Assembly (NCBI GenBank): GCA_015059185.1
Contig: SVAY01000003.1
Location: 15,251 to 79,250 of the forward strand
Length of the DNA stretch: 64,000 bases
Source: Erysipelotrichaceae bacterium
GTDB lineage: Bacteria; Bacillota_I; Bacilli_A; RFN20; CAG-826
Direction: 5' to 3'
Shown piece by piece: positions 26,765 through 34,357 of the stretch. Position 1 is the stretch's first letter. Each line of letters starts with the position of its first letter. Below the pieces are notes generated by a model. That model was given only the letters and a program-made list of their open reading frames with translations. It was not told the DNA's origin and made no database searches. The translations under genes were made by a program, and so were the position numbers.

Positions 26765-26804
26765 ATAGTAAAAAGGGTTACTAAGTACGTGGCTTAATAA
26801 CCCT
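26765..26804 (-). terminator. Intrinsic terminator ending the sipW-tasA-like operon.
   Basis: On the minus strand the hairpin AGGGTTATTAAGCCACGTACTTAGTAACCCT is followed by TTTTTACTAT. Confidence 0.5.
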
Positions 26805-26913
26805 CATAAGTTTACAGATTTACTCACCATTTAGCGGATGAGTGCGCTTTTTTATAACCTTTTATAGGTTTTATTGTTGTTTTTCCTTAAGTAATAAGGG
26901 AAGTTCGTACGTA

Positions 26914-29363
26914 TTATTGATTTACAACAAAATCACGTTCTGGCATGCGAACAACACCTGAACCATATACCTCTATAGTAACATTTTTTGGAATAACATC
27001 GTTTTCCACATCAACTATTATATTTGAAGCAGAAGGATAACCACTACCATTTTTTCCATAACCACAGAACAATTTTGAATTATTGCCATAATTAAATGTT
27101 CCACCATTTAAATTGAGTTCTATTCTACCACTATATTTCAAAGTAAAAATACAAGAATTTTCTAAATGACTTGTTTGTTCAAAATATCCACCATAAATGT
27201 TAAGTTTTTGTGTTTCGCTAGTAGCGTTAGCTAATTGTATTACATTTTGATCATCAATGGTAGTATTGTTTCTATTGGCCCTAAATGTTCCAGAATAAAC
27301 ATTTATTGTACATGCATGTGACTCTGACCCATTACTTGATATACATGGCCTCCATGTGCTGAATGATGGACCCGCTTCACCTTTTACACCTAAATTTACT
27401 TCCGAAGCATCCGTAATATAGATGCCATAATTTCCATCAGTTGGTGTTGTAAAAGTACCACCTAAGAAATTGCAAGAACATGCATTTCCTAAATATGCAA
27501 GATAATTTGAACCTGTTGCTGTTGTAGAGAAACTTCCACCAAATGTAGTCACTATGCCACCCAATACTTCAAATGTTGATTTGAGTCCCACATAATTACC
27601 ATCATAAATATCGAGCGTAGAAGTAGGACAAACAGTTAACATATATTCACTAGATGAAGAAATTGAACCATTACCACGTATAGTAAGATGACCAATTGAC
27701 GTTGATGAACCAACTTGAACAAGATATTTCGCTGAACCAGTTATTGTTTTTTCATTCATATTTAGAGTAATCGTTTTATTAACAGTAACTTTTTCACTAG
27801 ATCCTAAAGCAATATCATCTAATAGAACAATAACATCACCATCTTGTGCTGCATTAATTGCTGCTTGAAGTGTAGAATAACCAGTATTATTGATAGCAAC
27901 AGCACCTTGAATAAGATCATCTGATGCACTAGCAATAGCAGCTTCTTTTTGTTCGTTCGTCATTGTATTAAAGTCTTCAGGTAATGTTCCGCCAGTTGAT
28001 GAATAAATAATATTATTCGTTGTTGGACTAATTAAACCATTATTAGGGTTAGCACCCCATAAAACTTCAGAGGTATTAAGAATAATCGGAACCTCTTTGT
28101 TTGCACTGTTATCTGCTGATAAAGTTTTAACTGTTGCAAGTTCTGCTGCAGTCATATCAATTACAACTGCACCTGCGGAACAATCGTTATGAACAACAAC
28201 TTTACCCTTTTCAAGATTAATATTACCAGCTATGTCGCCATGTTCATTATAACAATTGTTATTATCAACTGCTGTAATATCAACTTTGTTCGCTTTACCA
28301 TAATGTGTAACTGTATCATTCTCTGCATTAATGGTCAAAACTGTGCTATAGGAATTAGTACGAATAACGACGCTATGAACATCGGTTGCTTCATGTCTAT
28401 CATAAGTAATGTTAGAGATAGTAGTAACATCACCAACATCTAAACCAACGGTTAAGTTATCAATATCAGTCCAACCTTCGCCAGTAGCGTAGATGGAATA
28501 ATCTTGAGTAGTTGGCATTGATTCATAGATTTTGAAATATCTGTAAGCATCCACTGGAGCTTCATTAAAACTATAGAATTGATCTCTTTCAACGCTATAA
28601 ACATAGCCTCTTTCTTTAACAGCAGCTACTTGAGATGCATCTAAATCTAAAAGAGCATCATGCATAGTGTCATTAGCGCCTTCAAGTCTAGATGTACCTA
28701 ATGTAGTGTTAATTGCTTCTAGAGTATCATCGGTATAAGCATTACCTTGAACAGCTTCATAACCTAAAACAAGAACAGCTTCCTTATCTTGGTATTGATT
28801 ATCATTATTATCATTACCAAATAAGACTTCACCATTGTCACCATCAGGGAAATTAACAGTTACAGTATATGAAGTTGGATTTTCGAATGCATTTACGTTT
28901 TCCCAAGTAGTATAAGATGTGCCTTCTCCTTTTAAAGCAAATTGTCTAGCATCACCTAATTTAGCTTCGACTTCTAAAGCACCCGCTAATTCACCTTGGA
29001 GAGAGACGTATAAACGTGATTTGATATTGATATTGGTTTTAGTGTTATCTAAATTAAAGCTGAATTTTGCGCCATCTCCTGGGGCGAGTTTATTTAAATG
29101 AATAACATTGTATTCATCTTTTGAGATAGACGCTCCAATGCTACTAGTATAGTTGTAATCACTATTTTTAGTCATTGAGACATTGCCTAATTCCCAAGCG
29201 TTATCAATTTTAAATCCGCCTTGAGAGCGATTTTACCTGCTTTTACATCGATTGTTGTTTCCGCTTTTGATGTAAATAAAGCGAAAGTTGTACCAACTGC
29301 AATGCCTCCAAAAGCTAGAGCGGCTGCAGCAGAGAGAATAATAGGTTTAATTTGTTTTCTCAT
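26914..29363 (-). pseudogene. Largest TasA/camelysin-family paralog (about 815 aa if intact), with a beta-helix-like C-terminal extension. It is interrupted by a -1 frameshift in a C3/G3 run at 29193-29195. This could be a genuine disruption or a sequencing error.
   Basis: The N-terminal fragment at 29187..29363 encodes MRKQIKPIILSAAAALAFGGIAVGTTFALFTSKAETTIDVKAGKIALKADLKLITLGN*, a SipW-cognate-type signal peptide. The main body at 26914..29175 continues in the -1 frame as (W)ELGNVSMTKNSDYNYTSSIGAS... The paralog reads continuously across this point (SQLVSVTELHDVAV...YTNSIGG). Restoring one G gives TLGELGNV. TasA-like motifs are LAPGDGAKFSF and LVLGYEAVQGNAY, and the C-terminus has repeated GG(T/Y)F beta-helix-like units. 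Confidence 0.55.
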
Positions 29364-29405
29364 GATAATTTCCTTTCTAATATATTTATTTAAATATTTT
29401 GGTAA

Positions 29406-32865: not shown

Positions 32866-32879
32866 ATATCCTAGGATAT
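32866..32879. promoter_or_regulatory. 14-bp perfect palindrome ATATCCTAGGATAT between sipW and the first tasA-like gene (candidate operator).
   Basis: Read directly from the sequence in the 188-nt intergenic region. Confidence 0.3.
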
Positions 32880-33027
32880 TACAAACATTTGTTATTTCTT
32901 ATTCTCTATTTTGTTATCTTTTGAGGATGAATTATCTTTTTTCTTTTTAAATACATCCATACAAAAGAAAATAATGAATAAGATGATACACACTAGTAGG
33001 CATATCGCGATAATTAAAAGAATGATA

Positions 33028-33858
33028 TCATTCATCGTCATGGTTATCTCCCTTCTTATCGTTAATTTGTTCTACGTCATTTTGAACATTTACGCCTTGT
33101 TCTTTTTTAAGTCTCTCAACCTCTTTTTTGAGTAATTCAATTTCATTAAGTTGATTACCTTTTTCTTCGTTAATCAAGGCTAATTGTTTTTCCTTTTTAT
33201 TCATATAGATAGCAAAAATGATTTTTCCTACCTCATATAAAGCAAGTAAACTAGCAGGCACTATTACGACAAAAATTAACACTAATTTATTGCTTGATAA
33301 GCCATATAGGAGATTACCTAAAAAAGCATTTGTTCCTGTTACTTTTCCAATAATTTCTCCTGTATCAGAATAGGCATATTGAAGATATTGATCATTATCA
33401 TAAACAAGATTATCCCCTTTAGGGTTATCACCTCTAAGGGTAAATTTAATATGATGTTCATTTTCTTCAATCTTCATCACTCTATGAGTAACTACAACAT
33501 TCCCACCTTTCTGATAGATAAATGTTAATACATCCCCTACTTTGATGGAGTGATAGAATTCTTTTTGTTTTTCTTCGTCTTGAGGTACTGTATCAATAAA
33601 AACTGCATCGCGAACGTTAATACGTTTTATCTGATATTCAGGATGAGCTTTATAAATTTCTTCATTTCCTTCCATCGAGCCAGATAGTACAATGCGCGTC
33701 TCATGCCCAAAGAAATTCATGGCACCTGTTTCGCTTTTCATCGATAACTTACTAACGAGAGCGAAAATATCAAAAGCAAGCAAAAGAGCAAGAACAGTAT
33801 ATAAAAAGACATTCAAAGTTATCTTTAAGCCTTTTTTATTCTTCGTCTTATTTTCCAT
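33028..33858 (-). CDS. sipW: Signal peptidase I of the SipW (archaeal/ER Sec11-like) type, with a C-terminal coiled-coil extension
   Basis: An N-terminal TM anchor and the active-site box VLSGSMEG (the canonical SipW box is SGSMEP). The C-terminus reads KKEKQLALINEEKGNQLNEIELLKKEVERLKKEQ. The gene lies in an operon with four proteins bearing SipW-cognate signal peptides. Confidence 0.7.
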   Translation of the reverse strand: MENKTKNKKGLKITLNVFLYTVLALLLAFDIFALVSKLSMKSETGAMNFFGHETRIVLSGSMEGNEEIYKAHPEYQIKRINVRDAVFIDTVPQDEEKQKEFYHSIKVGDVLTFIYQKGGNVVVTHRVMKIEENEHHIKFTLRGDNPKGDNLVYDNDQYLQYAYSDTGEIIGKVTGTNAFLGNLLYGLSSNKLVLIFVVIVPASLLALYEVGKIIFAIYMNKKEKQLALINEEKGNQLNEIELLKKEVERLKKEQGVNVQNDVEQINDKKGDNHDDE

Positions 33859-34357
33859 AGCTTAATCTAATGTGGACATCGCTAGCGAAGATATTGATAC
33901 TGAAATTATATTCATCTCCAATTTCTAAGCTATAATCATCTTTTAATGAATAATGCATCTCCACATTCTTCGTTTCTTTTGCTTTTACATCAAGCGAATA
34001 TTCATTTTTGTTTTCTATTAATGAATATAATGAGGAAGAAGTATCCTGATCGTCAAATGATATCATGAGATATTTATTAATTTCCTGTTGAGTACCATTA
34101 ATAGTGATATTCACAACAATCGTACGATCAAGCTTAGAAATGAGAGGGATTAAAAAAGTTGCACTTTCTCCAGCATTTATTGACTCTAGTTCTGCGTTAA
34201 TTGAGCGAGTATAGGTTTCATCATAAATATACGCTGATTCAAATTTATGGTTTTTTTCCTTATTTACAAAAATAATAGTGAAATAAGTGCCTAAACCAAT
34301 CGCTGTTGACATCGCTATAGCGAATAAAACACTGAGGAAGATTTTAACTTTATTCAT
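33848..34357 (-). CDS. Small secreted or signal-anchored protein, first gene of the sipW operon (TapA-like position).
   Basis: The N-terminus LFAIAMSTAIGLGTYFTIIF resembles SipW-cognate signal peptides, and the product is 169 aa. It overlaps the sipW start by 11 nt. Confidence 0.45.
   Translation of the reverse strand: MNKVKIFLSVLFAIAMSTAIGLGTYFTIIFVNKEKNHKFESAYIYDETYTRSINAELESINAGESATFLIPLISKLDRTIVVNITINGTQQEINKYLMISFDDQDTSSSLYSLIENKNEYSLDVKAKETKNVEMHYSLKDDYSLEIGDEYNFSINIFASDVHIRLSYGK

Follow-up and report, generated by a model that had tools for sequence, protein, structure and literature searches.

Does the genome of a gut Erysipelotrichaceae bacterium encode a surface fibre of the TasA type whose subunits carry large adhesin-like domains? 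The question is raised by a row of genes on the minus strand of a 64,000-nucleotide stretch of contig SVAY01000003.1 (positions 15,251 to 79,250; assembly GCA_015059185.1), the window analysed here. Six co-directional genes, in seven open reading frames (ORFs), occupy 34357-26914 between a promoter-like site and a terminator. The NCBI record is a metagenome-assembled genome (MAG) labelled Erysipelotrichaceae bacterium, in keeping with the Erysipelotrichia-like host that an initial annotation had proposed from the letters alone, and every product of the operon is entered there as "hypothetical protein". TasA-type fibres are known mainly as biofilm scaffolds of Bacillus and Clostridium, made of small core-only subunits. 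The initial annotation had seen a small secreted protein, a SipW-like signal peptidase and four TasA/camelysin paralogs, two of them with giant beta-helix extensions. All of its ORFs are present on the minus strand in a co-directional row, but it had counted seven genes where there are six, two ORFs of 58 and 753 aa belonging to one gene. We find that the locus is a TasA-superfamily, SipW/Sec11-type system of a divergent clade, invisible to current annotation, in which the cores are fused to large passengers. Are the cores truly related to TasA? Is the peptidase of the SipW type? And, would these proteins form a fibre? To the first two questions, which concern homology, the answer is yes with high confidence; the third is answered with less.

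The four paralogs are, in gene order, a core-only protein of 198 aa (32243-32839), a protein of 631 aa with a core and a beta-helix (30320-32215), one of 303 aa with a core and a Flg_new repeat (29406-30317) and one of 816 aa whose gene is frameshifted (26914-29363). The N-terminal ~225 residues of the 303-, 631- and 816-aa proteins share 36–40% pairwise identity, the figure for the 198-aa protein being 27%. Neither the 631-aa core nor the 753-aa ORF, searched as single sequences against the PDB, had any match, so that family profiles were needed. A nine-sequence core profile with the 303-aa protein as its first sequence (A2) matched Bacillus subtilis TasA (8aur, 5of1) and nothing else in the whole PDB (E 7e-9), and a 78-sequence core profile (A4) returned the same two TasA entries only (E 3e-5). 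These alignments span the L-x-PGDK strand and the N-x-YQ...FEA(V/T)Q strand. The 198-aa protein matched a profile built without it (A3) with an E-value of 3e-9. The relationship to TasA that had been proposed initially is borne out as a significant and specific similarity at the profile level. Each of the four had also been said to carry L-x-PGD and FEAVQ-x-NAY motifs; this is so for the 631-, 303- and 816-aa proteins, whereas the 198-aa protein has only degenerate forms (IPGMKG, LCTQVTNN). In structural models of the 631-aa protein and the 753-aa ORF the core is an all-beta domain with a predicted local distance difference test score (pLDDT) >90.

The N-termini point to the same family. The signal motifs AVGTTFALFTS, AAGTTYALFTS and SVLALYQS, listed in the initial annotation as SipW-cognate, are all present. 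Among 18,950 NCBIfam models, TIGR04088 (SipW-cognate signal; cut-off 19 bits) is the only or best match on three N-termini: the 816-aa protein exceeds the cut-off with 19.4 bits, the 303- and 631-aa proteins stay under it with 18.0 and 15.2 bits, and the 198- and 169-aa proteins give no match. From the Phe that follows the predicted cleavage site to a conserved Ser-Gly there are 12 residues, in the paralogs and in the TasA chain alike.

Might these proteins instead be camelysin-type cell-surface metalloproteases? The Pfam family that their relatives match, PF12389, is named Peptidase_M73, camelysin. In the window it reaches 13.7 bits on the 631-aa protein and 15.3 bits on the 58-aa ORF, over the signal region only and under the gathering cut-off of 22.5 bits, and it does not match the 303-, 198- and 753-aa products. 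The syntenic short paralogs of related loci do better: PF12389 is the top Pfam match in 8/8 and passes the cut-off in 4/8 (23.5–37.2 bits), with two of these four aligned full length, and the relatives P0009 and P0100 (23.2 bits) also carry it. A protease function is nevertheless very remote, since no HExxH or other zinc motif occurs in any of the operon proteins, the assignment of CalY as a peptidase is regarded as a likely misidentification (PMC11580942), and TasA itself has a structural role, as a protein of fibres (PMC9674648).

Directly upstream of the four paralogs lies the gene for a 276-aa protein (33028-33858) that, judged from its profile matches and catalytic boxes, is a signal peptidase I of the endoplasmic reticulum (ER)/Sec11/SipW type from a divergent clade. 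Signal peptidases of the ER type use Ser-His(-Asp) in SxSM, HR and GDN boxes, and P-type enzymes use Ser-Lys. The only significant PDB matches of the 276-aa protein were human SEC11A and SEC11C, both with the single sequence (E 2e-5) and with a profile of 39 homologues (E 1.6e-6). Alignment with SEC11A places its catalytic residues at S61 (SGSME), H125 (THRV) and D144 (GDN), which are invariant across the 39 homologues and kept in 16–17 of the 17 copies in related loci. The SGSMEG box and the SipW-like assignment given in the initial annotation both stand, and with them two of the points on which that annotation had staked its reading, the similarity of the cores to TasA and the Sec11/SipW type of the peptidase; its third point, that the signal peptides are other than ordinary Sec/SPase-I or lipoprotein signals, is not contradicted by the N-termini. 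The protein has hydrophobic transmembrane (TM) segments at its N- and C-terminal ends (residues ~10-41 and 182-217), a ~40-residue insertion after the serine box and a charged C-terminal tail. A Pfam scan found no S24 or S26 family in it and only two weak, unrelated, sub-threshold matches. The clade comprises 87 homologous clusters (P0176, P0193-P0278) of 215–320 aa with the insertion after the Ser box; none of these has a precomputed Pfam domain, their NCBI MAG entries are all named "hypothetical protein", and one JGI (Joint Genome Institute) entry is named as an ABC transporter subunit. As judged from codon differences between strains, both sipW (18 synonymous, 2 non-synonymous) and the 198-aa gene (17 synonymous, 2 non-synonymous) are shown to be under strong purifying selection.

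What do the cores carry? The 631-aa protein was modelled with AlphaFold2 from a 78-sequence alignment (pLDDT 80.8), and the model runs from a signal helix through an unstructured segment, a confident all-beta core and two beta-sandwiches to a domain of short regular strands. Its parts are a signal peptide with a putative donor-strand segment (aa 1-47), the TasA-like core (aa 48-232; 31520-32215), two beta-sandwich domains (aa ~235-378) and a right-handed parallel beta-helix (aa ~380-600; about 30323-31078). The modelled beta-helix is confirmed by structural matches to solved beta-helix proteins; among those it resembles are passengers or binding regions of adhesins, namely of the serine-rich repeat protein SRRP (5nxk), PfbA, pertactin and UpaB. 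In the monomer model, residues 32-47, which link the signal helix to the first strand of the core, are unstructured and mostly of low confidence; this is compatible with donor-strand exchange and is no test of it. The 303-aa protein ends in one Listeria-Bacteroides (Flg_new) repeat (residues 222-297; 29427-29654; PF09479, E 4.4e-14), as the initial annotation had noticed. In the 816-aa protein the core is followed by a conserved module of three helices and beta strands (28141-28683), common to more than 40 long family members, then by a linker and a probable beta-helix (about 26956-27903). The AlphaFold2 model of the 753-aa ORF (pLDDT 85.8) consists of the core, the three-helix and beta module, a low-confidence linker and a repeat region, where residues 460-740 (~280 residues) form three short strands per 22–30 residues; GG[TSY]F rungs recur at a spacing of 26–34 aa. 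Foldseek gave this model beta-helix matches of low probability, and the best matches were generic jelly-roll carbohydrate-binding modules (CBMs) on the core. The two beta-helix passengers initially called can thus be separated: that of the 631-aa protein holds, and the 816-aa protein probably has one.

The C-terminal domains of the 631- and 816-aa proteins and of a neighbouring 435-aa lipoprotein have no mutual homology detectable by BLASTP or hhalign, the sole similarity found being a cap-like segment of 39 columns common to the 631- and 435-aa proteins. For 10 long homologues the extensions gave no Pfam domain, and a word-index search with the C-terminus of the 816-aa protein returned 5 relatives only.

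Is the combination of a TasA-like core with a long extension an oddity of this window? It is not. The core profile was run against 1.84 billion representatives of clusters at 50% identity and matched 4656 clusters at E <= 1e-3 and 305 at E <= 1e-30. The 146 closest have a median length of 688 aa; most lie between 400 and 1300 aa, 130/146 exceed 400 aa and 53/146 exceed 800 aa, and nearly all are annotated as hypothetical. The motif G-x-x-F-A-x-F-T-[DS] occurs in 115 of these 146, and LPxTG in the last 60 residues of none (0/146). A scan of GTDB contigs, for which the closer alignment A3 was used since A2 is too divergent for a pattern scan, found 27 related loci at 25–35% identity in Lachnospiraceae, Gemmiger, Christensenellaceae, other Clostridia MAGs, Bacilli MAGs, Ca. 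Onthovivens and Ca. Enterosoma. Their order recurs: an optional TM protein like that of 169 aa, a SipW-like protein (240–310 aa), one short paralog (~205–224 aa) and 1–3 long ones (450–980 aa). The operon order is thus conserved among relatives, with a SipW-like gene in 16/27 loci (17 genes, one locus, L008, having two). Because this order recurs and long clusters dominate, the chimeric architecture is, by sequence comparison, the rule in the clade; its description as unusual in the initial annotation does not hold.

These findings favour, with moderate confidence, a SipW-dependent filament or adhesin operon of the TasA superfamily, making a donor-strand fibre that would display passenger domains. 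The four paralogs would be exported by Sec and cleaved after the G-T-T-F-A motif by the dedicated Sec11/SipW-type peptidase. Cleavage would free an N-terminal strand, LFTSK..T.I.V.SG, with the spacing of the mature TasA N-terminus, and this strand could insert into the jelly-roll core of a neighbouring subunit, by donor-strand exchange as in TasA (PMC9674648) and BsaA, to build a fibre. The core-only 198-aa protein would be the likely shaft or a minor subunit. The passengers of the 303-, 631- and 816-aa proteins may stand out from the fibre, along its length or at the tip, as adhesin or glycan-binding heads: the Flg_new repeat in the first, immunoglobulin (Ig)-like domains and the right-handed beta-helix in the second, and the conserved module, as a stalk, with the probable beta-helix in the third, the 816-aa subunit being at present inactivated by the frameshift. 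The steps of cleavage, strand insertion, shaft and head are drawn from studies of related systems (PMC9674648, PMC10151520, PMC11580942, PMC11821415, bioRxiv 10.64898/2026.01.04.697558).

The first gene of the operon (33848-34357) may supply the base. Its 169-aa product has an N-terminal hydrophobic TM segment (residues 3-31), and homologues lie directly upstream of sipW in three related loci (L005, L017, L020). The family has a long N-terminal hydrophobic segment and a PGES strand and lacks the SipW motif. When the family profile (A6) was aligned with the core profile A2 by hhalign, the probability was 83.7% and the E-value 8e-6; the alignment covers the TM segment and the PGES strand and has a gap exactly at the donor-strand position. 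The protein is proposed to be a membrane-tethered, acceptor-only TasA-like base subunit with a role like that of TafF. With its uncleaved-looking TM segment and a TasA-like fragment free of a donor strand, it would receive the final donor strand and hold the fibre at the membrane. No other step of the proposal is as weak as this one. The 169-aa protein has no Pfam match and, searched as a profile, no PDB match; on the latter ground a TapA-like identity was rejected. Between strains its gene shows 6 synonymous and 6 non-synonymous codon differences.

Several points weigh against the filament operon. Fibre formation is here inferred by homology. The window's own proteins are under the curated PF12389 cut-off and, with the sole exception of the one TIGR04088 match, under the curated Pfam and NCBIfam cut-offs. 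For the peptidase, the NCBIfam SipW model NF046067 gives 53.6 bits (E 2e-14; cut-off 190), and TIGR02228, the model for archaeal and ER-type signal peptidases, gives 46.6 bits, short of its cut-off of 51.85. The 198-aa protein has neither the canonical FT[SD] motif nor a TIGR04088 match. The link of the 169-aa protein to the TasA-like family is weak, consisting of the pairwise hhalign result with no significant match to a hidden Markov model. The 816-aa gene is broken in all three samples seen. Finally, TasA is absent from the top structural matches of the full-length models, where beta-helix proteins or generic jelly-roll CBMs dominate, and so the TasA fold of the cores is supported by sequence profiles and not by fold search.

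There is another possibility. The proteins might be secreted as monomers, glycan-binding or polysaccharide-degrading, at the surface or outside the cell, with a CBM-like jelly-roll, a SipW-like enzyme that is just their dedicated peptidase, and no filament. On the 753-aa model Foldseek finds jelly rolls of the CBM4, CBM6 and CBM36 types with probabilities of up to 1.0 over a segment of ~150 residues, and lyases, glycosidases and phage depolymerases are also among the proteins that the 631-aa beta-helix resembles. Even so, we think such monomers unlikely, for TasA is the one PDB protein that the sequence profiles match, the N-terminal strand segment is kept with TasA-like spacing in all paralogs and in the 115 of 146 relatives, and co-assembly fits several same-module paralogs and a core-only member in one operon better than independent enzymes do.

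How does the proposed filament operon compare with known systems? Like tapA-sipW-tasA of B. subtilis (TasA; PDB 5OF1, 8AUR), it has a gene for a dedicated ER/Sec11-type peptidase beside those of its substrates, SipW-cognate signals of the form G-x-x-[FW]-A followed by F-[TN]-[SD], the jelly-roll core strands L-x-PGDK and FEA(V/T)Q, and an equal spacing from the cleavage site to the Ser-Gly of the donor strand. It differs in having four paralogs instead of one major subunit, three of them with C-terminal passengers of 80–590 aa where TasA ends in no more than a short disordered tail. The operon has no detectable homologue of TapA. In contrast to B. subtilis SipW, the peptidase has 276 aa with the insertion and the charged tail and is under the SipW model cut-offs, and the host is an anaerobic gut member of the Erysipelotrichaceae. 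Closer in layout is sipW-bsaA-bsaB-bsaC of Clostridium perfringens, in which BsaA goes with SipW and where sipW likewise comes first and is followed by several TasA-like paralogs in one operon (PMC11580942). A survey of the family in the same study records operons with several paralogs and puts forward donor-strand exchange as the way in which heteropolymers would form. There, however, BsaA and BsaB consist of the core alone, and a separate, non-TasA gene encodes the large VWA protein BsaC, whereas here the large domains are fused to cores. With regard to the N-E-K isopeptide triad of BsaA, the Asn is out of register among the present paralogs in an alignment judged by eye.

Multi-subunit filament loci of the TasA superfamily with a dedicated signal peptidase I (SPase I) are also known from the haloarchaeal Tafi pili, with a tip (TafC), adapter (TafE), shaft (TafA), anchor (TafF) and signal peptidase (TafD; PMC11821415, PMC12337348), and from AbpX-type loci (bioRxiv 10.64898/2026.01.04.697558). 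In both, minor and tip subunits have variable distal domains, and the anchor combines a subunit-like acceptor domain with a membrane span. Tafi pili differ from the present system in being archaeal, Tat (twin-arginine translocation)-dependent and distant in sequence, and in an anchor whose membrane span is C-terminal where the one here is N-terminal; no DUF5305 accessory protein accompanies the operon. Beta-helix adhesins such as the binding region of Limosilactobacillus reuteri SRRP (5NXK), PfbA of Streptococcus pneumoniae (3ZPP) and autotransporter passengers depend for their anchoring on LPXTG and sortase or on an autotransporter barrel. The helix of the 631-aa protein is instead fused to a TasA-like polymerisation module, at a sequence identity of <=20% to them. 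Likewise, unlike sortase-anchored Gram-positive pili and LPXTG adhesins, no operon protein contains LPxTG or, at its C-terminus, a sorting signal of that kind. Operons with multiple TasA/BsaA paralogs, and tip and anchor subunits, have already been discussed in papers of 2025-2026 (PMC11580942, PMC11821415, bioRxiv 10.64898/2026.01.04.697558), which weakens the novelty that the initial annotation had claimed. In the literature searched, neither TasA-core/beta-helix fusions nor this peptidase clade had been described.

Is the locus still functional? The ORFs of 58 aa (29363-29187) and 753 aa (29175-26914) are one gene split by a deletion of 1 nt at about 29214, where one G is missing. The frameshift was mapped with a sister contig (L002) that is 98.7% identical to the window: the window reads GAT-TTAAAATT where the sister contig reads GATGTTAAAATT. 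The restored product has 816 aa; the initial annotation was right to restore it and had its length as 815. In a comparison of the window with L002/L031 and L032, a block of 7.66 kb (24830-32492) is identical between the window and ERZ27247052 bar two single-base deletions, and its flanks differ by 2.4–3.8%. The block contains the 5' end of guaB, the lipoprotein gene, the 816-, 303- and 631-aa genes and part of the 198-aa gene. The two deletions, at about 29214 and 29055, are 159 nt apart, one per allele, and both are in the 816-aa gene. The second deletion allele recurs in JGI sample 3300018407, and no intact allele was found among the three samples. An assembly error is an unlikely cause, as the second allele comes from two independent samples. 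Classical phase variation at a repeat tract was also considered and is unsupported, neither deletion lying in a long homopolymer.

The identical block with its separate deletions suggests a recent recombination or sweep of an adhesin cassette, followed by independent inactivation of the largest subunit. Could the whole operon be decaying, the frameshift being one sign of its ongoing pseudogenisation? One of the two single-base deletions is present in every sample, and the equal numbers of synonymous and non-synonymous differences in the 169-aa gene would also fit decay. The other five genes are intact, however, and the purifying selection on sipW and the 198-aa gene argues for function, so that a non-functional locus is improbable. 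Moreover, the long ORF past the frameshift shows no other damage, and the two strains have the block in identical form; inactivation would therefore be very recent and limited to one subunit of the filament operon. That the largest subunit was hit by two independent and very recent frameshifts hints that selection acts on an antigen exposed at the surface.

What would such a system mean? As these data suggest, the TasA-type polymerisation module appears in many uncultured gut Clostridia and Bacilli to be joined to large domains of an adhesin-like or glycan-binding kind. Should such fusions polymerise, nature would offer a parallel to engineered TasA-fusion materials, and the gut microbiota would have a class of host- or glycan-binding appendages that has been overlooked. 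Going further, we tentatively raise the possibility of a widespread and unannotated heteropolymeric TasA-type fibre of gut Firmicutes, with large native passengers (beta-helix, Ig-like, Flg_new), priming by a divergent Sec11-like peptidase, and the donor-strand-less, N-terminally anchored 169-aa protein as its base in place of a sortase. If true, monoderm bacteria would have a third way of making adhesive pili, in addition to sortase pili and type IV pili. With their current cut-offs, Pfam and NCBIfam detect neither the substrates nor the peptidase clade, which calls for new models.

Just past the clpB terminator and upstream of the first operon gene there is a promoter-like site, TTGACA-18-TATGAT (34405-34434, minus strand), which at 11/12 is the top consensus match of the region and is a consensus match only. 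The start of sipW overlaps the 169-aa gene by 11 nt. At the other end an intrinsic-terminator-like hairpin (26773-26805, minus strand) closes the operon with a 13-bp stem followed by a T-run, the clean terminator described initially. The genome uses the standard genetic code. A recoded mollicute genome (TGA=Trp) was ruled out: table 11 reads the long ORFs through, and the break in the 816-aa gene is a frameshift that ends in TAG.

Downstream, as a separate transcription unit with its own terminator (25199-25169), lies the gene for the 435-aa lipoprotein (25277-26584, minus strand). The initial annotation had seen in it a beta-helix and collagen-like lipoprotein, and it does have a lipobox (LGLGAC), a collagen repeat (PF01391, E 6e-10) and a beta-helix-like C-terminal domain. 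This domain ties it to the operon, for it matches a domain inside a TasA-core protein of 1120 aa (P0130) with an E-value of 3.7e-23. Such domains therefore seem to move between anchoring modes, and passengers appear to have been exchanged between lipoprotein-anchored and TasA-core-fused surface proteins.

The window corresponds, as reverse complement, to a metagenome contig of 117 kb. The flanking genes are chromosomal housekeeping genes (nusA, atpA, atpD, clpB, guaB and that of a pyrophosphate-dependent phosphofructokinase, PPi-PFK). A RelB/PIN toxin-antitoxin pair adjoins guaB at ~22.7–23.5 kb of the window (also L001, 18755-19464), and the sister strain has an additional MazE/PIN pair at the guaB site (L002, 11414-12414), which makes this a variable islet. 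Farther away, an ORF of 2250 aa (10799-17551, minus strand) has no Pfam match at E <= 0.001, and two Lipase_3 (class 3 lipase) proteins are encoded downstream of it (9358-10815 and 4773-6311). DUF3990 proteins are found on either side of the operon region (38691-39584 and 20332-20979, both minus strand), and a protein with AAA-ATPase_like and PDDEXK_9 domains is encoded at 39795-41498 (minus strand); these genes around the operon may be related to defence or to mobile elements.

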